A stretch of 56,658 bases of DNA, the filler included, from Asterionella formosa (lineage: Eukaryota), in the NCBI GenBank assembly GCA_002256025.1. It is 4 parts of 4 records of this genome, joined end to end, with 100 filler letters (N's around TTAATTAATTAA, not from the genome) between each part and the next. Parts side by side here need not be neighbours in the genome. Positions count along the whole stretch, not along the records: positions 1 to 14,136 come from NKIB01006191.1; 3 more parts are not named here. One strand, written 5' to 3'. The first letter of the stretch is position 1. Each line of letters opens with the position of its first letter. Made by a program: the position numbers and the translations under genes. Of this stretch, positions 1 to 14,136 are shown piece after piece. The notes under the pieces are model-generated. The model did not search any database. It was not told the origin of the DNA and worked only from the letters and a program-made list of their open reading frames with translations.

Positions 1-220
1 TAAGAGAAAGATCCGAAACCTTTACTCCTGGAAGATCCACGGATAATTGAAATGAATTTGCTGTTTCAGCGACAGTGTGGTCTCGGAAAGCTGCAGCATT
101 ACTATGATGAAAAGGAGAGCAAGATTGTTCTGTCTGCTGACAAGCTCTGGCGGCATAGGCTCGAGCGAAAAAGTCATTCATGACGACTTGTTGGGGTTTA
201 TGGTAAGATATGATTGGCAT
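1..220 (-). CDS. Small heat-shock protein (HSP20/alpha-crystallin family), 5' part; runs off the window start
   Basis: Manual translation from ATG at 220: MPIISYHKPQQVVMNDFFARAYAARACQQ...DHTVAETANSFQLSVDLPGVKVSDLSL. 'ET..SFQLSVDLPGVK..DL' matches the start of an alpha-crystallin domain. No stop before the window edge. Confidence 0.8.
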   Translation of the reverse strand, partial: MPIISYHKPQQVVMNDFFARAYAARACQQTEQSCSPFHHSNAAAFRDHTVAETANSFQLSVDLPGVKVSDLSL

Positions 221-269
221 TTGGTTCTTTTGACTGTCGATACTTCGTTTCTGTTTACGAAATTGTGAG

Positions 270-470
270 CTGAGAACTTCAAGGCATTATTACCGGGGTG
301 TACTCTAGGAAGGTCTTCGAAGGTATCGAATTCCCCTTTTCCCATACACCAGTACATAATGAAGTATGATATCGGTTCAGAGCTTGTTTCTAGCCTGCGA
401 GCGGAAATAAATTGTTTGACAGAATTTCTAAGAATTTTGAGTGTTATCGAGCGAAACTCTTCGAAGCGCG
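270..470. promoter_or_regulatory. Cluster of heat-shock-element-like nGAAn/nTTCn units upstream of HSP20
   Basis: GAAggTCTtcGAA (309-321), GAAttTCTaaGAA (422-434) and GAAacTCTtcGAA (453-465), all within about 250 bp of the HSP20 start. Confidence 0.45.
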
Positions 471-2153
471 ACGATCCTTGCTACTAATTTAGTGCTCACG
501 GATGTCGCGAAATGAGGTACATGGTACCTGTTACAAATATATTTTTGGTTGCCCGAAAGACCGGAAACTGCTAACGATAAATCTCATGTGTTGTCAAAAT
601 GGAGATGACGATCGCCATTTTCGTCCTAGATAATAGTAATTCATTATCCCCTTTTTCGGATAGCTATGCTCAATCATATCATTGCTTAGCTCTAGAGTGT
701 GAGCTACTATTGTAATGAATGATACCTAGTGAAATCCATAATTTCATATATTTTGCCCAAAGACTCGATTCGGTTGAGTCAAAGGACGAGAAAACTACTA
801 CAGCCATAGGGAAATGTGTATGCAAAAATATATATAAAATAGTTTAAATAAGATAAACTTTGCTTTGCTGTACTGTTACCGACATTACGGTAGTCTTGTC
901 TACTGGTACTGGCAATGCAATGGTTTCATGATGGCTCATTTGCTATTGCTGGTACCTGGTAGGTACATAAAGTCTATTCACTCATCAGCATGCTCTGAAG
1001 GCATCCCGGTATAAATACCTGTTATGGTACAGGGTACGGGTACCTGATATAGAGAATGAAGTCAATGAACCATCACAGTTTATACTAACATATTGGTATG
1101 TTGTAGACTATAATACCAGTATACTCCTTCAGCCATGTTTGTTTCCAATACTTCTGTTAATAATTATAACTCTATGATAGGAATGGATCCCTTCCTGTCA
1201 CCCAGTAATGGAGTGAATTAGCAAGGGCCTGTTTCACTTAGTTTCAGAAACTCCTGGATTCTTTTCTATCCACCATAGCTGCTCATCTACCTTAAGGGAA
1301 ACCTTAAGAGTGCACTAATAGGCCTGTCAATCCCCAACTCAGCATTCCTAGCAAGCAACTCCACAACCAGATTCTCCATGTGATTTGGATTTGTCACTTT
1401 CTTCGTCGCATCAATGAAGTGACCCATGGCAGCCAGTGATTAGTGCACCACCTCTAAGCCCACCAGTCTCACTGTGAATTTGAATAGAATTTTTTGGTTT
1501 TATAAGCAACATGTTGTACTCAAACAGTTCCAAATTTTCATTCTGAATATCCTCAAACTTCTTATGTCAAGAAAGCAATCATCGAATCAGCCATGTTTGC
1601 TCATGATAAAACTCTGAATTGCATTTCTCCTGTTTAGACATTTCTTATTTAAGTAATAATATTGCTGTGTTGAATGTAGTCTTTGCCCTCTATCATCCTA
1701 TGTATTGGTTAAGTGATTTTGTACCTGCCTCATCCTTGCTGTCACTTGCATTGCCATAATTGCTAACAACATTATGTTGCAATTGCAAGAATGACAAGAC
1801 AACACCATACTGTGCATATTTACCTTCTTGTTTTAATAAATAAACTCATTTATTAATCGCTTTAAACTACTCTACTGCTAGTAGGGGAGCTTGCGTAGCG
1901 CTTCCTGGCGTTACCAGCCCTGGTTTTCTGGAAGACGAACCATGCCGATATCAGGAGCCCAACAGCCATTGTGACTTTCGGCGCTGGAACGCAGGGAAAA
2001 GGGTGGATACACTCCCTCGAGGGGAAGTTGGAAAATTTTGCTTTCTTGATGACAGTGTTTCTTTGGTGCTGTCATATTAATCAGTCTCCCGTCGTCTTTG
2101 ACGAACCAGGAAGAAATTGAATAACTTAGTTAGAACTTCATGTAAGCTGCATA

Positions 2154-2700
2154 TTACATCTAAGCCGCGTATTATGTGAAGCGACCTTCACATAAATAAG
2201 CCTAGTTGATTTTGAATGGCTCACATGAAGTAGTTGAATAAATCAACATGCTTATTTGAATATATATATATGTTATCTGAATACATCACCTTAATTATTT
2301 GATCAGAGTTTCATGCATGCATTCCTGATCATCACTTTATTACATCTAAGCCGCGTATTACGTAAGTGACCTTCACCTAAATAAATCTACCGGTAGTTGA
2401 TTTTGAATCACATGAATGAGTTGAATACATCAAAATGCTTACTTGAATATCTATATATTATCTGAATACATCACGTTAATTATTTGATCAGAGTATCATG
2501 CATGCATTCCTGATCATCACTATATTACGTGATCACCTTCTCGTAATTATTTAAAAATTTAAAACTCTTCACGTAATTATTTGAAATACTTCAATTAATT
2601 CTGTAATTTAGTTCACATCGCCTTATAATTTTGTTCACGTAATTCTATAATATAGTTCACATAATTTTTTAAATTTGTTCACGTAGTTTAAAGTAATATC
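2154..2700. repeat. Dispersed repeat: two tandem ~186-bp units followed by a degenerate TTCAC(G/A)TAATT array
   Basis: Units start 'ttacatctaagccgcgtatta' at 2154 and 2340; a homologous copy lies at 40695-41060. Confidence 0.85.
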
Positions 2701-4361
2701 AAATAATGTTGATAACAAATTCAACTACCTGTATTTCACATTACATGGGAAAAAAATCTCGATATGCAATCAAACAAAGCTGTTCTATTCGAATGGCACC
2801 TTCAGTCTTGAGAAGGCAGGCATTATGAGACGTCGGTAAGGACAGCATTGCAAGACGAAGAGAAGCCGTTCATCCAGAAGGGGAATTTATTCACTCTTGA
2901 ACAGGCATCATTGTACAAAGTTGCAACATGAATGCATCACACACTGGCTTCCTTCTTGTCCTTGAAATGACTTGCTTCTTCATTGACCTGCAAAGATTTA
3001 CATAACAACAGTGTGTCAGTAATTCATATGATAGAACTAGCAACAGCAGAAAGCAACACACAGATGTGGTAGTATTCAACTGTTTCTTAGGGAAGTCGAA
3101 TTGAAACAACAAACCGGCATCAACCAGACAGCACCACAACTCACCGATGCGTTCAAAAGAATGCTCCTGTTGTGAAATGTTCGGCAAAAATGAAAAATAA
3201 ATGTAGAGAAAAATAATAGAACCATAGTAGTACAGTTACCTAGTACCGGTAGTACAAGGTTATCCCTGTCTTGGGCTTTCTTCATTTCCCAATACAAGGT
3301 CATAACTTCCAATTCAAGGTGTATTGGGTTTTGTCTCTACTATGTCATGTACCAATACAAGGTGACAATATTTTTCAATTCAAGATTTCCGCTGTATTGG
3401 GCCTTACATGCGAAATGGCGATGCAAGTTGTCCGAATTTTTGAAGGCTTTGTTGTTGTATTTTTCTTGCATGCTATTTCTCAACCATGCTCTTGCTTCTG
3501 TCGACGTTTCCAGAGTGTATCACTGTAAACATATTTCTCAGTGCTCCAATATGCTTTGCCTGGTAAAGGATTGGTGAATTGCGATGAAGGCAAATCTGGG
3601 GCTCAAGAACCACGCACAAAGGATGATTCTAACATTGTCAGAAATTCGATATTGCTGTTAAATTCTATAATATGTTTGTTTCTTGTTAAAATAGCAAAAT
3701 AAACTTGAAGAGTTGAAAAGGAATATATTAATATACCAACTTGAACTACTTATTTGCAGCTAGGTTTTTCTTGTTTGCATCACGTGACTTCTGGTTTGAA
3801 GTTGTCTGTGAATACAATTTCCGTTGGATCTAACGTTTTACTCAGCATATGATGAAATTTTTTTTATGAAGCTAAATTTTTATTCTATCGAAAATAATTT
3901 TGATACATTAATAATTGATTCTGTTTGATCAATCAAATTTTTATCTCAGGTTATGGTTTTACACATATGACGTTATGCATATGTAAAAATTAATCGAACG
4001 TATGTACCAAAAGTTATTGATTTTGCAAATTTGCTGTTTCATCGGAAATTATTTTGATATATCAACATCATTTTCTGTTCGATCAATAGAATCTATATCT
4101 GGTGATGACAACATTACACGTACCAACTCACACGTTTTTTTGTACTCTGTAGAGTACCGGTAGTACCAGATGACTTGCCATTCCGACTTGATCACTTGCG
4201 TTGATGCACTTAATGTACAGGTACTCCTCTCTCCTCTTTCCTTTCTCATATCGGCAATCGAAATTTTACCTTTTGACTAAGCCAGGTGTGCTCGTCGAGT
4301 CCCTCACGAGCTGCCTTCCCACGGAGAAGATGAAGATCTTAGTAGTCTTGTAACGAATGAT

Positions 4362-4772
4362 ATGGTTTCGATACTGAAAGGGAAGTATGCCGGCGAAGTT
4401 GGATTGTTTGTTTGTTACACAAAAGCCAAAGCTTTGGTCAATTTATACAACAGAATTGGAGTAAAATCCATTGAAGCTCATGCCCGCCTACCATCCGAAA
4501 TCAAGAAGATAATTCCTTTTGCTCATAGTTCGCCCACTGCAGACGTAGGTTCATATTTCGGATCATTTCTTCAAGACAAGGCGTGGATCAGAGTGAAGAT
4601 AGACCAGATGGTGGCACAGTTTGTTGCTCATGGTCTTAATCATGAGACATCAATTCTTATTGACTATTGGAGAGAACGTTTATATGCTGCCAACTTGGGG
4701 CAACTTGGAGCGCACAGACATCACAAATCTAGAAACAGCTGCATCTCTTCTACAGAATTAATCAAGATATAG
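4362..4772 (+). CDS. Hypothetical protein with a KOW-like N-terminus, probably transposon-associated
   Basis: VSILKGKYAGEVG resembles a KOW motif; lies next to decayed transposon ORFs. Confidence 0.35.
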   Translation: MVSILKGKYAGEVGLFVCYTKAKALVNLYNRIGVKSIEAHARLPSEIKKIIPFAHSSPTADVGSYFGSFLQDKAWIRVKIDQMVAQFVAHGLNHETSILIDYWRERLYAANLGQLGAHRHHKSRNSCISSTELIKI

Positions 4773-5084
4773 CAACTCAACTTGAATCATGAATAGAAGT
4801 GGGTTCGAAATGACAATCACACCATTATTAGTTATGTACTATCCCATTGTTTTAATAATTCTTGTTACTACTGCCAAGATTTGCAATAGGACCTGCTAAA
4901 GTTTATGTCATGACTTCATTGCCATACCGGTATGCATTTACACTATTATTTTATATACTAAATATATACTAGTGTATTCCGTCTCACACATTTTTTCCGG
5001 CATGTATTATATGTATAAAATATTAGAATATCGAATACCTGGTACCGGTTCCTGGTAGCACCTCTAATTGTTCAATATCGAGCA

Positions 5085-7249
5085 ATGGCACACAGCAGCA
5101 ACAGTAGTCAAGATGACTCCAATGGTGTTGATGAAGTGCTCCGACATTGGGAAGTTTATAAAGATCCCTGTACATTTACCAATGTTGTTAGTACCGGTAT
5201 TGATACAGAGGAAAAGAGGAATAAGATTCTTGGCACTATTTCGGCCACATTTGAAAAGCATCGTCAAAATTGGGAAGCATTTTTCCCAAGAACCAGCCGA
5301 TGGAATTAGTCATTCCAAGTAGAGAACATCGACGTTGTGTGTTCTCTGTGTCTAAATCTACACAGTTGATTGACAACGAGATAGTTGGAAATGAAGATCG
5401 TCAGGTTTGTGTGGTAGATCTTGTTTCTATCTCCACAGAGTCTATTGATTCCGATTTGCTTGATATTAAGCTATCATCCCGTTCCAAAGCAAAAGGTACA
5501 CTAAAGGAAATTCCAGAAATCATTATTACAAATCTGGAGATAATTCACGGTAGCTACTTTCCAAAGAATTCCAAAATTGTTGGGGTGGCTGATAGGAAAG
5601 TAATTGAACAGGTCGAGGCTTCAAACTTTTTTTCTAGTTAGGATATGGATAAATTGAAATGTTTCGACGAAGGAATTCATAAATATTTACATGAAAGAGC
5701 GACAAGAAACAAAGAAACACATGTGCAGGGAAAGGTTAATGTTGCTGTTTCCACATATGTTGTGGAATTGGAACAGTTCAATGATCGCCTTTATGGTGTT
5801 TCACCATTGTTTTGTTGGGTGGAATCCATGTCCTGTCCATTCTGCGTGACTTGCCATGTATTTGATTCAGCCTTCCGTTTCCCACTTCCATTGGGTTTGG
5901 AGTCACTTAAACTCTACTACAATACATACTCCCACACTCCATCAGAAGTACGTTAGTTTTGCAAGAATGAATATTTCCTGAAATTGACAAGAAAACAGTA
6001 TAGGGAACATTATGAAGAACTGGACAATTGTGCTTATTGGGATATTGAAATTGTGACCGCAATAGTGAAGTACATTGTTCATGAACTGGACCCCTCAAAT
6101 ATTCATGTCATTGTTGAATCTCAAGACTTAAAGGACTGGAATACTGAGCGAACATCCTTATCCATCTGACTGTTACTACCTCCAACCCTCCCTTGAATTC
6201 CTCATTTTGTGGTTTATTTACAAACAAGTCATCATCAACATTATGTTCTATATTGTTTTGATCTAAATGAAGGCATAGTTGAAGTATGTGATCCTGAACA
6301 TGGAGTGTGTTTGGAAAGTCATTTGAAATGCACCATTCACGAGATTGCACGTAAATACCGACTTTGCCCAAGGTTTGATATCGATAAAAAAATTATACCA
6401 TCAAAAAATGTGGTCAAGTTGAAAACAGAGTTCGAGAAATGGAAATCAGGCAGGAAGAAAGCTAAATCACTTCATCGCAAAAGATTTTTGAAAATATTGG
6501 GTGAAAAACCAAGGATCGGAGGTTATACTGATGGCGAACCTCAGTTTAAGATTGCCAGTGGATGTTGAGGTAAAGAGCACCTGACATGTTTTATGGCCAA
6601 AGATACTGATTTAATGATTTTCCAACCAACCGAGGATGGTAAATGGTCATGTGGTCCCTTTAAGATTTTGAAGTTTATGGAATTATTACTTCAGTTACAT
6701 CATAGTAGAGAAACGGTGTTTATGGGGAAGCGAAGTGAGGCTCGGTTAATGCTTGATGGTTGGGATACATTTTTGAGAATGAAATTTAATGCAAGTGATG
6801 GAATTGGATGGTCATATCCTGACAATACCACAGATTTCGGAATTGAAGATGCGGTTATGGAATATGTTTTGAAAAAAATTGTGGGTTCTTGTGTTGATAA
6901 AGTTGCAGCAATGGAGTTCAATCCTAATTTTGAGTTATCTCCGACGTTAAGTGATACCGAACTGACATATCTTAATGAAATGATTAAACATCCTGTAAAA
7001 TCATTACATTGGCATGATAATGAAGAAACCAGGAAATTTGACAAAGAATTCGAACATGATGCTTTGGTTATTGCTGAGGCCATGCAGAGAGTGAGCCGTC
7101 ATTCTGTCCTTCTGGATGGCGTCCAACATGATAGAGTTTACAACAATTTTAAGAAATTTTGGAAATCTTAGGAAGAATCAGCAGATGATGACAGTTCATA
7201 TTCATCATCAGGCACTCGAAAAAAGAGAACATACATAAGTCATACATAA
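5085..7249 (+). pseudogene. Decayed Ulp1-like (peptidase C48) cysteine protease ORF of a transposon
   Basis: ORFs 5270, 5645, 5984, 6209 and 6593 share one frame broken by six TAG/TGA stops, with one frameshift near 5300. Ordered catalytic motifs: HYVLYCFD(H), EVCDP(D), FQPTEDGKWSCG(Q,C). Confidence 0.65.
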
Positions 7250-7259
7250 GTATCTAATG

Positions 7260-8730
7260 AATTCGTGACAAACTAGTATGCACATGTTGAGCGGAGTATT
7301 TTCTAAATTTAAGTGAAGCAAAATAATATCGTTACTTTGCCTCTGTACTTAAATGAATATCCCAACCAATCAATTTCCATTGATCTCGTGGTGGTAATGC
7401 TATATAATAATCAGTGTTTTCCATGGCTGATATGGTTTCTCTTGAACTCATACATTTTCTGTTTGTACCTGGCGGTAAAGCAGGGACTACAAACGCTGTG
7501 GAAAGTATGTTGTTATGCTCAACAACTCTTAAACCAGTATTCTCATCGCAAATATAATCTCCTTTAGCAAAAAACATGAGATCATGGGCTGTCATGTTAT
7601 TGGTGCTTCTCAACGAACAAACAGATGCCAGGATTGATTTGGTTCCATCCGAGTAAATGACGTTCCCCATAAAAGTAGTTTTGCTGGTACAGTCGTGTAG
7701 TAATTACCATTCCGACTTTCCCAATTCACCTCAATCCAATCAAACCAGGAATTAGTTTCTTGATGATTGCTATTATCCTTTTCGTTTCAAATTGGATTAC
7801 ATCTTAAAAATGTTTTCACTGTCATCTTTGGAAACAATAGTAACATGGTAATAGAAATCGATCCTGAGCAGTACCTCTACAGACATAGTTCCAATAGAAT
7901 TTTTGTCATTACAGAGCTGAACGGCAGAGTTTACAAGGTTCTTAACCGCTGCTTTCCCGTAGTCGTTGTGTGGTTGGAAGAGGCAGAATTAGACTGTCCC
8001 ATCTGATCGTTTTCGTTCTTTTCTTGATTGTTTATTCCTTCCGGAAATGTACCAAATTCCACAGTCATCTTTTTCTGCCGAGAATTGAATTTTTTGGGGT
8101 TTCATAAGAATGCATGGATGTCTTATGAGTGGGTATATCGGTTGAATCAATATCATCAAGATCAGATTCATCAGATTTTGATTCATCAGATTTTGATGCA
8201 TCAGTATTTGATGATGTATCAGTATTTTCATCCTTTACCAACAGGGACATAACGTAATCACTGGGGAAGAGAACTTTCCTGGCAATTGAATATTGTCTTC
8301 CTTCATAACTCCTCAATAATACATCGTGTTGTAGACAGTGTGTATGACCATTTACTCTTTTATTTGGACGTTTCAATTTTTCTTTCAAAACTGATTCTAC
8401 GAAACCACCGAAGAAGTTGATAGGTGTTCCAAATTTTTTAATCAAATGAGGGTAATGAATCATTCCATGGAACTTGGGTATACGGTATGCGACAGAAGAA
8501 AACAGTTCACGTTGTTCTCCAGTTACTGTTTTTGTCACAGCAAGATATCTTCGAATTCGTTTGTCTAGGATTTCTATTCACTCTTCAGTGTATTGTCCCA
8601 TATTCAGATTGTCATTCAATGAAATACTTAACCATAATAATGTTGTAAACAAGTCTGACTCAAATTTTTGAAATTTGGGACCCATCATGCCAGCACCCAT
8701 GGCGAAGATTGTTAATAGACTTATAGACAT
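7260..8730 (-). pseudogene. Plavaka-like (CMC/CACTA-related) transposase, C-terminal half, decayed and 5'-truncated
   Basis: YRIPKFHGMIHYPHLIKKFGTPINFFGGFVESVLKEKLKRP, and downstream RCNP...SWFDWIEVNW...VPAKLL; several stops and frameshifts. Confidence 0.7.
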
Positions 8731-9429
8731 TCATAGATGAAAAAAAAACATAAATTTTGAAGAATTTGGAAATTTTGATAAATGATTGCGAAATTGAAGT
8801 ACCTCTTATTTCACAAAACCTGATGATGAAGTAAAGATCGACAGCCTCCTATCGAACTGACCTGAAAGCTCAGGAGAGAATGAGGATTGATACCCTGTTG
8901 CGTCACCTGTCACCTATCAATCAACCATGAAAGGAGATGTTAGTTATATGTTCTTTATCTGTTCATCTATCATTAATGATCGATGAGCATCAATAATATC
9001 TCTTGTCCCTACCTGCAGATGCGAGAATGAGGATTGATACCCGATCACTTATCAATCAAGCATGATGGGCGATGTAAGTTATATGCCCTTTACCTTTTCA
9101 TCTACCATTAATGATAGATGTCTACTACAAGGAATTCGACATTAATAATATCTCTTGTCCCTACCTGCAGATGCAAGAATGAGGATTGATACCCAATCAC
9201 TTATCAATCAAGCATGATGAGCGATGTAAGTTAAATGCTCTTTACCTGTTCATCTATCATTAGGGCCGATCTTAACAGAGATACAAATTGTTTTTTGTTG
9301 TATCTTCAAAAAAAAGAATCTTTACAGAGATACATTTCACAAATATATCTCTGTAACGGTAAAACAGTTAGCCGTTTTCTTTATGTCTCTGCAAACATGT
9401 GCATCAGACACAACAAAAAATTTGCAATG

Positions 9430-9762
9430 TGAGCTTCAATTATTCAAGGTGTCTGACCATTATCATTGCTGCAACGACAACGACAAATCGACTGGAAGAA
9501 CCTGACAGTTGGGATGTCATTGACAGTCTTGATAAAGAAGCGGAACAACAGAGCTTTTCGTTAATTGCAGCAGTTACATTATCATTTTTGGAGTCCTATC
9601 AACGAAACTCAAAGCCAGTGCGAATTCCAAAATGGGAGCATCAATGAATTGACTGGAATGAGCAAGTCATAAAGCTTCTTCATGACAATATATTTCATCG
9701 TGAATATCGCGTGTCCCTTGAAGCTTTCAATCAACTTCTGGAACTACTTCGACCTTCCATCA
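9430..9762 (+). pseudogene. Harbinger DDE transposase N-terminal remnant
   Basis: [44 protein letters not shown] matches the 'F...YRMS...F..L...L' N-terminus of Harbinger transposases; truncated before the DDE core. Confidence 0.7.
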
Positions 9763-9764
9763 AA

Positions 9765-10015
9765 TCATTTGTGGACGAGAAATTTTGTCGGGGGCTCAGC
9801 GTGTTCATGACCCAGACTTGTTGGACGAACGGGCCAAAGCATGGGGAATCGATGTATCGATGATTCAGGATTATGTGAACTCGTTCCGTAATGGTGCTCT
9901 TCCCCATGGTGGCGGAGGTATTGGACTCGAGCGTGTCGTTATGCTATTTTTAGGGCGGGCTGCCCAACATTCGAAAGGCAGCCTGGTTCCCTCATGACCC
10001 CAAGCGTCTGCATGC
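9765..10015 (+). pseudogene. Captured 3' fragment of cytosolic aspartyl-tRNA synthetase
   Basis: [13 protein letters not shown]...[18 protein letters not shown], then a gggc duplication frameshift to [17 protein letters not shown] (class IIb motif 3). Confidence 0.9.
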
Positions 10016-10088
10016 AGCCGTTGTCAGAAATGATTCGACAAATATAATGACATTTTTTACCTTACTGAGACTTTTAATTATAGAGTTT

Positions 10089-10650
10089 TCACCGATAGGC
10101 TTGATGCTGCGGTTGCAAATCAATAACCATAATCGTCATGTTATCTCCGCCAATACCTTGGGTAAATCGAGGATCTTCACTAATGATTTCATCTAGCATC
10201 TCAATTCCAATCTCTACTGGCGTCTTGGTGTCAATTCGCTCTCTCACGTATTTTACCGCCTGTTCGTTAGTGAGCCAATCCCAAATACCATCACAACCCA
10301 AAATAATGAATTCGTCATTTGGATGCAGAATCTCCTGAACAATATTGGGTTTCGCTGTAATCATTTGTCCTGCTGGGGGAGTTCCAGGAACTTGTTTATA
10401 TTTCAGATCACCAATGGATCAAGAAAGGTTCAAGTTTCCATTTACACGCCCGAATTGGTTTACAAATCGACCAGCCTTGTGAATTCTATCCATTTCTCGA
10501 TCTTGCTGTGGTTTGTGGTCGAAACTTAATGCTTCCATCTTTCCACCCGACCTACAAAGGACTGCTCGGGAATCCCCAGCATTCGCAACAGTTAGTGTAC
10601 ATCCAATGATAACCGCCACGATCGCTGTACAGCCGGCATGAATTTGGGAG
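10089..10650 (-). pseudogene. Captured 3' fragment of a PP2C (PPM) protein phosphatase
   Basis: HAGCTAIVAV...ANAGDSRAVL...DHKP...RVNGNLNLS*SIGDLKYK...ILGCDGIWD...GGDNMT; one stop at a probable CGA>TGA; N-terminal half absent. Confidence 0.9.
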
Positions 10651-11310
10651 CAGTTGCAGCATTTCTTTTCCTCTGATTCTTGGGAGGTCGTCCCTGTTTC
10701 TTAATAATCTGGTTGGATATTTTAGAATCGTCATCCAATAAAATATCAGCAGGAACTGGAGATGGAAATGCATACAATTGGGACGGAGATAATTCGGAAT
10801 CTGTACTTGAATCATTGGCAATATCTTCTCTGGTAGTAGAAAGTTGCTTTGATAGTATTAGGCAAGGAGACTTCCTTGTTGATGATTTAGGAGTAAAGGG
10901 AGAGCCTTTTCTTTTCAGATACTTCTTTAGGCGACGAGACAACCTTGTTGATGATTCAAGAGTAAAGGGAGCTCCGTTTATTTTCAGGTCCTTCTTTGGT
11001 TCTTTTGATGACTTTTTGTTGTACCCCAATATGTCTCAAAGATCAAGAGTCTTTAACCAATTCTTAATGAGTGTAATCATTATCATCTCTGTTTTGTTTC
11101 TGTATCCGGCGATTTTAAAGTGAACGCAAATATGACGAAGTTGTTGTAGCGATATCTGTTGAATGGCTGAGCATGTCTTTTATTGTTGTCTAAGACCCTT
11201 CGTGGTCAATGAAAAAATCAGAAGGAGGAGTGATACATGCATCCCACTGGTCATCCTGTCTCCTTGCTGCAGAGTAAGTTTCATTGTTCAAAGATTCAAA
11301 TGATGCCATT
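10650..11310 (-). pseudogene. Remnant of the Harbinger second (DNA-binding) ORF
   Basis: Decayed frame QQLRHICVHFKIAGYRNK...; basic repeats and an AT-hook-like KQGRPPK; inside the TIRs and convergent with the transposase. Confidence 0.45.
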
Positions 11311-14136
11311 GCAAAAGTTGTTTACAGGTGATGAATAGCATTATTCCATGAGTAGCTAGAGATAATATTAATTTCTGCTGAGAAGCAATCCCTCCTCCCA
11401 AAATTCATTTCTGTTGTTGCCGTTGATGTCTTTGTTGATTAATTCAATTCCATGACATATATTAAATTTATAAATTAGTGTTGCTTAACGCTGTATCTGC
11501 AGCGATACACACAGAGACACATTTCGGAGCAACAAAAAATGTGTTCCTGGAAGCAACATATCACCCGGATATGCGAGATACAAAAATTGGGCCGAGCAAC
11601 ATTTTTTTGTTTTTTGTATCTTTGTTAAGATTGGCCCTTAATGATAGATGGCTACTACAAGGAATTCGACATTAATAATATCTCTTGTCCCTCCCTGCAG
11701 ATGCGAGAATGAGGATTGATACCTGATCACTAATCAATCAAGCATGATGGGCGATGTAAGTTATATTCTCTTTATCTTTTTATATGTCTATTGGAGCACG
11801 AAGTTGTATTTTATCTTCAATTATGTTTATATAAAACCCTTGCTTGACAACATCTTCTCGGTGCACTTGAGTGTAAGGAAGAGCGCTTGTGATCATATAT
11901 TGTGGATTGTTTCGTTGCATCTATGTGGAGATGGTTTACTCATTGCAACACTTTCGCTAACATTGTTCTTATCTCCTACAGTAAAATCAGATAAAAAGGT
12001 TAGAGAATATGAGTTTGCTGTCATTCGTAATGGTGGAATTTTGAATATTACATCAGCAACGTTGATGACTCTTTCATTTCATCTTTAAGAATGTCAAAGT
12101 GAATGATAGATGTCACTGAAATGAAAGGAATCAACGATGACCTATGTGCTCATTTTGTTAAAGGATGTGAAGTGGGAATGGATGTTGCATGCATAAAGGA
12201 TGTAAAATTAAGTAGCAATACATGTAACTCGACTTTTCTAGATCATTGATCGAACATCATAATATGTTTGACCGAAAGTAAGATTGCTTTAGATCTGTAG
12301 AAATAAATGCGTAAGGTCGAAAGCAAAGTATTATATGATCAAACAATCCAAATGTTAGATCAATAGATCAATTGACTTCATCGATCGGTTGTTATCATTA
12401 GATCGTAAGTTGGAACACTACTTGATAAAAAAGTAATGGTTCTGTATTAACGATGGTGCCATTGTTGGGACGATTAATTTTTGCGTGCATTGATGTATAA
12501 ATAGATTGAATGTATAATACTAAGGGAACACAACCTGATGCAACAACAAAAACTGTTTGATAAAAGAACAGTTTGTATATAAACATGCATAAATATGTTT
12601 ATGATCAAACACGCAAAAAGTTATTGATCAATAACTTTTTTTGTGTGATCTATAACTTGTTATAGATGATCGGAACAGAATTTTGTTTGATGGACAGCAG
12701 TGATTGCAATTTGTCTGCCATTTGTGGAGTGCAGGGCCTTTGTGATAATATCAATGCCATTGGAGCAGGGTGTGTTGGCCTTTGCATGAGCCGCATCCAA
12801 GTAGTTGGGAGCATTCTTGATGGCTACAATATCCAGTATGGGCAGATTCAATAATGGACACAGCAATTGGTGATGGGACCATTGCACTAAACACCACCCA
12901 ACAAGCTGACTGAAGTTTCGTGAGTCTTTATCAATTACTTTCCATCCACGGACTTTGGAGCATTGGAAGGAACGAACGCAGTCAAGGGATTGGCGGCTTT
13001 CTTCATGTCCGGAACACCTGAGTTTATATATAGCAGCTTGAAAAGCAGTACCTGCATGACGATATCAATTGAGGCCTGTCAATGTGCATCTGAAAGGAAG
13101 TATTACAATGATAAAGACTATAAATGGCGATAGTTCTTATGACACAGATCCTTCTGACAGCCCAAGAAGAGACTTAGGGAGCACCAGGATCAAGATTTCA
13201 TAGGGAGCACTACTAACTGTGTGAGATAAGCTGAATGATATGAGCCCCTATAGGCTTTTCCAGTCGTGATTTTCATTTAGTTATTATGCTCATTATACTG
13301 CAAAAATATTTGCTAGGTTCCCATCATAAGTGTTCAATAGTCAAACACCAAGCATCAACAAAAGTTGCAAAACTTTAATTGTAAATACAGATGCATTGAA
13401 TCTTATTTCCAAGGAGACAGACTTAGAGCATACACCCTAGGTAGTTGTTAGGATTTGAAGCAAACAAAATTTATTCAGTTCATCTAAAAGAGTGCCGACT
13501 TTTGCTAGCAAGTTCTCCACAGTTGCTAGTTGGCCAAGTCCTGAAAAGCAAGTATGATCGTTGGATAGCAATGGATCACTCGACTTTATAAATGAGCTAG
13601 AACTTGAATTGAAGGAGGACATCCCATATTGTTCAACGTTTTGTAATATTTTCGGAATCAGTGGCTTCATTGCTATTGACAAGTAACTGTGTTTAGAAGT
13701 CAAAACCAGCATAAGAGAAAATTCCAGCATACCATGTATGCTAAGTAGAGGAGGAGAACGAAAAGACTTGAAATAGTTCAATCACCATGCTTCAAAATCT
13801 GCAGGAGCACTGGCTCTCATTAATGTTGTCTTGCTTGGCCCAGATTTTAATAAATATCATGCAAAATGAAAAGGACTTGCTTTCGTCAAACATTAAACTG
13901 CTTTACTCTGTAAAGTTTTACTTTCAGAAAAACTTTTTGGCTATTGACATATTTTCTTATTCACTCAGGGCAGATGCTATTAATGAGTCGAAGTCCTTTA
14001 TCTGATTTGAACTTTATGATATGCACTCCAATCTAAGATGCTATTAATGAGTCGAAGTCCCTTTCTATGATTTGAACTTTATGATATGCTCCCCAATCTA
14101 CGTAGCACTTAACAGCACGGTCAAAAAATGGTCGGG

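Follow-up and report, generated by a model that had tools for sequence, protein, structure and literature searches.

The DNA analysed here, hereafter the window, is a stretch of 56,658 nucleotides (filler included) from the diatom Asterionella formosa (GCA_002256025.1), of which positions 1 to 14,136 come from record NKIB01006191.1. This part carries a Harbinger-type transposon whose centre consists of the 3' ends of two convergent host genes, encoding a cytosolic aspartyl-tRNA synthetase (AspRS) and a PP2C protein. The element occupies positions 9263-11637 (2375 bp) and ends in 25-bp terminal inverted repeats (TIRs), identified by their inverted match at 9263-9287 (plus strand) and 11613-11637 (minus strand); counting one flanking base, the repeat arms come to 26 nt and are 92% complementary. 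Scanning the genome with the TIR pattern gave 62 matches, and the reversed control gave 0. The same TTA target-site duplication (TSD) stands on both sides (9260-9262 and 11638-11640, plus strand). The insertion lies in a 152-bp tandem repeat, recognised from its neighbouring units, that covers 8953-9262 and whose split unit continues at 11638-11788; the empty site is visible in the adjoining units at 8960-8985 and 9098-9120. The TIRs, the TTA duplication and the empty site in the tandem repeat had been proposed in an earlier sequence-only reading of the window and were found again. Within the 152-bp unit, the target site forms the middle of a near-palindrome of 21 bp (9250-9262 and 11638-11650; 9098-9120 in the empty unit).

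Three parts make up the element. The left arm (9263-9764, plus strand) comprises a subterminal region and a broken 5' remnant of a Harbinger transposase without the DDE domain, and matches the first 500 bp of the cargo-free copies in the same genome at 85-91% identity. The right arm (10644-11637, minus strand) comprises a 5' remnant of the second open reading frame (ORF2) and a subterminal region, includes a 69-bp tandem repeat at 10858-10997, and is 85-89% identical to the cargo-free copies. Between them lies the captured host segment (9765-10643), 879 bp here and 927 bp in the donor, where it matches L086:5862-4936 end to end. Its plus strand carries the AspRS 3' end at 9765-10010, assigned by PF00152 (tRNA-synt_2, E 2e-15), alignment and frames, and its minus strand carries most of the last PP2C exon at 10089-10643, assigned by PF00481 (E 2e-28 and 1e-16) and ORFs, with an internal stop at 10419-10421. 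The window copy has acquired a 4-bp duplication that shifts the AspRS frame and a 52-bp deletion that takes out the AspRS stop region. The transposase remnant runs into the AspRS end and ORF2 into the PP2C end, both out of frame, as the sequence-only reading had stated and as Pfam and frame reading confirmed; the fusions end 37 and 22 residues past the anchors used.

Cargo-free relatives of 3.3-3.5 kb have both arms of the cargo-bearing (pack) element. They encode a DDE transposase (PF13359, DDE_Tnp_4, E 1.8e-19 and 1.4e-12), which is missing from the pack copy, and, tail to tail with it, an ORF2 of at least 346 aa. The pack element lacks about 2 kb of their centre, including the transposase catalytic region and the 3' part of ORF2, and has the contiguous 927-bp host segment in its place. 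The element is therefore a non-autonomous PIF/Harbinger derivative of the Pack-PIF kind, now in a diatom. Like the PIF/Harbinger members of the PHIS superfamily, as characterised in the relevant part of PMC4482050, the family has a DDE transposase, two ORFs and mostly a 3-bp TWA duplication; unlike them, it shows TCA in 2 of 7 matched duplications and an ORF2 without recognisable Myb/SANT. The ORF2 family counts 247 relatives, and ORF2 with 36 of them gave no match to Myb/SANT or any other Pfam family. ORF2 (L236:129-1169) has a core with a confidently predicted helical fold (pLDDT 84); its atlas matches were below 0.8, and its matches to solved structures were weak (best Z 3.6; GT-1 at Z 2.4, rmsd 4.4, 58 aligned). 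The model returned no Foldseek match and no VIA match at Z≥5, from which the absence of Myb/SANT does not follow. A short rearranged derivative carrying three TIRs was also seen at L100:520-1404 (G000:C13066).

The donor locus was found at G000:C12371 (L086), where a 565-aa open AspRS exon faces the PP2C gene with 122 bp between the stops. This was the intact, adjacent, convergent locus that the sequence-only reading had expected elsewhere in the genome, and the only one found in our searches. The cargo matches it end to end, intergenic part included, and so the proposal that one tail-to-tail host segment was taken up held. The donor is intact, spliced and expressed (runs X20 and X21), and its PP2C exon begins at L086:4911 according to spliced RNA contigs. 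The closest named relatives of the AspRS are from diatoms. Among 80 metagenome loci retrieved with the PP2C exon, 7 keep the two genes tail to tail, an order that is therefore older than the capture. At L086:5490-5612, one polyA contig crosses the 3' ends of both donor genes; this suggests that their 3' untranslated regions overlap, a matter that RNA contigs cannot settle.

The pack element is multicopy. A search of its own genome gave at least 56 matches (40 of 336 candidates scored), and the cargo with Harbinger arms was found on 16 contigs. Collapsing two pairs that were 100% identical and leaving out two short pieces resulted in 12 copies for analysis. The left capture junction is common to 9/9 and the right to 9/9 of the aligned full or near-full copies, with microhomology of 0 bp at the left and 2 bp at the right. 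Where pack copies were cut out with both ends, 5 of 7 had matching duplications (TTA, TAA, TTA, TCA, TAA) and their flanks differed; among all 14 copies cut out in this way, seven had matching duplications (TTA twice, TAA three times, TCA twice) and seven were mismatched or had degraded ends. Common junctions with different flanks and TSDs show that the element transposed after a capture that the copies share. The window copy and that on C9426 have common flanks and indels, and thus represent one insertion duplicated with its surroundings. The duplicated stretches, window positions 3432-11703 and their counterpart on G000:C9426, are 91-95% identical and differ by an inversion and a deletion, which places the element within a larger repeated unit.

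We give virtually no credence to the possibility that the assembly joined a transposon to a gene pair by mistake. In favour of such an artefact, the assembly is fragmented (15,436 contigs) and the pack contigs include two pairs with 100% identity; against it, the copies, at least 12 in number, have diverged and sit between different flanks with TSDs of their own, the independent metagenome contig L115 has an identical left junction, and the junction occurs again in runs X8 and X21. Misassembly of the junctions, which the sequence-only reading had named as the outcome that would undo it, is thereby excluded. Part of the PP2C cargo (242 bp) also occurs at L087:3071-3312 (G000:C15315:5070-5311) as a clean insertion in one copy of another high-copy repeat, other copies of which do not have it. 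Of 12 diagnostic sites in this piece, 10 read as in the pack copies and 2 as in the donor; it is either a second-hand or an early independent copy.

The copies decay neutrally. They lie 1.6-5.4% away from their majority sequence, have a pN/pS of 1.01 over the 12 copies, and contain many stops and indels. CpG transitions occurred at 96/928 sites, compared with 60/3446 at other C/G, an approximately sixfold excess, and the decay probably took place under methylation. The tree of copies is star-like, which suggests a burst of transposition soon after capture. Insertions in the copies (alignment A1) are mostly tandem duplications of 3-4 bp; two of them mark a sub-lineage of four copies, indicating that derived copies kept transposing. 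An ancestral in-frame fusion was considered and ruled out: the transposase junction is out of frame in all 9 copies read, and among 11 copies the ORF2-PP2C junction is in frame only in C7729, by a later indel, with a stop 82 residues past the anchor.

These data bear on whether the element has been retained for a function, either as a chimeric protein or as a regulatory antisense RNA, which we consider highly improbable. The in-frame ORF2-PP2C junction of C7729 would favour a chimeric protein, although it arose late and its frame closes at the stop noted above; the pN/pS, stops and indels of the copies also argue against retention. Transcripts were sought in several runs. In the polyA run X20, which shares its sample with the best DNA holder, 2/2 contigs examined were of parent type, although contigs reveal neither strand nor level. 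In the metatranscriptome X21, parent contigs are spliced and the donor introns have no cover, which implies low carry-over of single-copy DNA; pack-type contigs are present there at depths of 40.6 and 9, and one contig crosses the left junction and extends 239 bases into the Harbinger arm, a hint that some copy is transcribed. Pack contigs in X8 were rejected as evidence of transcription because this run covers the donor introns unspliced, so that X8 establishes no more than the presence of the junction in a divergent strain. Run X2 was left out, with coverage of 9/30 bins only. The sequence-only reading had held that any function would lie at the RNA level, against the parent genes; neutral decay of the cargo and a polyA run with parent-type contigs only speak against such a function. 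For RNA acting on the parents the support is indirect only, from the pack-type contigs of X21 and from a loss of CpG in the donor described below. In the best explanation, the element has no selected coding function.

The origin of the element may be pictured as follows. A full-length Harbinger element would have broken and been repaired by a single template switch, with about 2 kb of its centre exchanged for 927 bp copied from the convergent AspRS and PP2C 3' ends. The product kept both TIRs. Proteins of the family would then have mobilised it in trans, spreading it in a burst over at least 12 sites, and it has since decayed neutrally with CpG-biased mutation, as expected of a methylated dead transposon. 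Junction microhomology of 0 and 2 bp fits the gap-repair origin put forward in the sequence-only reading, a route that we infer. We place the probability of this account, namely a single capture by template switch, mobilisation in trans and neutral decay without a selected coding function, at roughly 0.88 as a whole.

Several points weigh against it. The pack-type contigs of X21 suggest that some pack copy is transcribed in one population, as contigs without strand or level. A DNA template would be the simplest reading of the capture, yet it is unprovable over read-through RNA because the cargo has no intron. None of the 10 cargo-free copies translated from the sampled genome was an intact autonomous copy. 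A single pack clade on the right arm was not rejected (p-AU 0.33), but 16 of 19 inner branches of the arm tree are open and the tree itself does not show one clade. When 32 further TIR loci and another 27 loci of the family, partly overlapping, were mapped on the cargo-free reference, no second cargo family stood out, unmatched gaps not being identified one by one; these loci look like truncations or deletion derivatives. The search for sister elements suggested by the sequence-only reading yielded ones with the same cargo (at least 12 copies), and neither a different cargo nor an intact autonomous partner in the loci sampled.

Related captures have been described in plants and animals. Zm-Pack-PIF cluster 18, in the maize and rice Pack-PIF material consulted in PMC8903248, resembles the diatom element as a non-autonomous, multicopy PIF/Harbinger with TTA/TAA duplications, host coding fragments and non-pack relatives. 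Its cargo measures 163 and 58 bp, compared with 927 bp here. The diatom cargo is one block over two gene ends that replaces the centre of a full-length element, whereas that material proposes a neighbouring-insertion route. Multicopy Pack-TIRs of animals, for which the main text of PMC8277862 presents gap-filling and FoSTeST models, likewise combine a template switch into a TIR element with later amplification, and their median microhomology is 2 bp. The Pack-TIRs treated there are mostly single-copy, and that main text does not use the word Harbinger; the diatom element is multicopy and forms no functional chimera. Giant Pack-MULE-like elements are reported for the brown alga Ectocarpus in the part of PMC12477816 consulted. 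No description of a diatom Pack-TYPE or Pack-Harbinger element was found in the literature searched, which left most subscription journals outside and whose supplements may hold closer Pack-PIF cases.

The copies preserve the ancestral sequence of the donor, and comparison with them revealed a loss of CpG in the donor. The donor differs from the majority of the 12 copies at 38 of 927 positions; at 16 of these the donor side has lost a CpG by transition, silently in 15 cases, and one silent CpG loss lies on the pack side. The changes were placed on the working gene because amino acids are spared. Silent C/G transitions on the donor occurred at 15/32 CpG sites and 5/120 sites elsewhere (p=2e-8). 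The donor has lost 16/45 CpG dinucleotides, equal to the most decayed copy (copies range from 1/32 to 16/45). The silent CpG share of the segment was 26/77 ancestrally, equal to the 58/171 of the adjoining uncaptured coding stretches, and is 14/79 today (p=0.03 against the ancestral share and 0.01 against the adjoining stretches). The 242-bp L087 piece keeps CpG at 4/4 of the donor-lost sites that it covers. The CpG index of the segment fell from 0.73 at capture to 0.34 now. Metagenome orthologs were rejected as an outgroup for CpG polarity, being 72-80% identical and too distant, and two duplicate contig pairs were identical, hence without polymorphism for this purpose.

Run X8 provided a comparison with uncaptured DNA, in which 40 of 242 differences were listed. 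Inside the captured segment, the X8 donor allele is indistinguishable from the pack copies. Across the uncaptured AspRS stretch 5863-6365, our side had lost 0/16 CpG among the differences listed, and these 503 bases beside the boundary contain at least 8 differences, including 3 CpG losses on the X8 side, all within 170 bp of the boundary. CpG turnover was 15/32 inside the segment, between donor and copies, and at least 3/19 outside, among the listed differences to X8 (p=0.035; coding only, p=0.063). Silent non-CpG distance was similar (8 in 804 bp inside, at least 5 in 503 bp outside), and CpG turnover was approximately threefold higher inside.

One reading of this loss, added to the account of capture given above, is that the silencing aimed at the pack copies also reaches the donor in trans, whereby small RNAs or homology-guided marks would methylate the 927 bp of the donor and deamination would erode its silent CpGs. 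The donor-side excess of silent losses, the CpG share now below that of the neighbouring stretches, the L087 piece and the X8 contrast argue for it. In the parts of the sources consulted, diatom genes are mostly unmethylated and diatom transposable elements (TEs) are CG-methylated (PMC9998398), diatoms are reported to have repeat-associated small RNAs (PMC4156623), and captured parts of maize donor genes gain local CG methylation (10.1101/777037), which in expressed donors stays without spreading (also reviewed in PMC13317346). The epigenetic conflict after capture set out for maize predicts marks limited to the captured part of an expressed donor, and the CpG loss lies there. The maize work measured siRNA (small interfering RNA) and methylation over 1,629 donors; the diatom case is a footprint of mutation at a single locus, and the methyltransferases of this lineage differ. 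Against this reading, the X8 control comprises 8 rows among those listed, with completeness for 5863-6365 assumed, and its coding-only contrast is weaker. CpG transitions make up 3/8 of the listed X8 differences in uncaptured DNA, so that genes in general may have hypermutable CpG. Today's index of 0.34 falls within the range of 0.15-1.14 of 33 long ORFs sampled (TE and wrong-strand frames included), and the index is 0.50 in the 250 codons upstream and 0.41 in ortholog L138. The donor is still well expressed rather than silenced, and it is a single locus. We hold this trans-acting reading tentatively, at somewhat less than even odds.

The loss may instead be ordinary, about an even chance in our estimate, arising from genome-wide CpG and GC-to-AT mutation bias, or from methylation caused by the donor's own overlapping 3' ends, unlinked to capture. 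All five silent non-CpG C/G transitions on the donor side head towards A/T, CpG transitions are likewise frequent among the uncaptured X8 differences, and one RNA contig connects the 3' ends of both genes. However, the two genes had long stood tail to tail without the segment being CpG-poor when it was captured, and the threefold turnover inside accompanies a similar silent non-CpG distance. Separately, a CpG-poor 3' end was observed in an AspRS paralog (L234:3521-4501; G000:C12688), directly beside a repeat beginning at its stop, and the ORF adjoining pack copy C14304 is also CpG-poor; both suggest methylation spreading in cis. This paralog was tried as a second captured donor and rejected, as its coding part has no copies and a repeat starts at its stop. 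Two further ORFs of the window, 6569-7171 and 8065-8577, gave no significant Pfam match.

As a modest addition to what is known, the element brings diatoms into the range of Pack-type capture by PIF/Harbinger. The donor's loss of CpG, on which nothing was found in the literature searched, including the parts of PMC5861414 consulted, matters more than the element itself if it holds, and is the testable lead of this analysis. It is conceivable, though we lean slightly against it, that the capture brought CG methylation, as a host defence, to bear in trans on two housekeeping genes, with about half of the silent CpGs in the captured stretch lost since then, faster than in most copies; in its boldest form, this reading would have selection helping the donor to shed CpG targets. 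If true, trans-methylation would be a heritable, sequence-level cost of gene capture and would indirectly point to methylation guided by homology in a diatom. Sequence alone would then reveal earlier trans-methylation of donor genes, and the donor, with a sharp boundary at either end of the captured segment, would be a specific place to ask whether homology guides diatom CG methylation.

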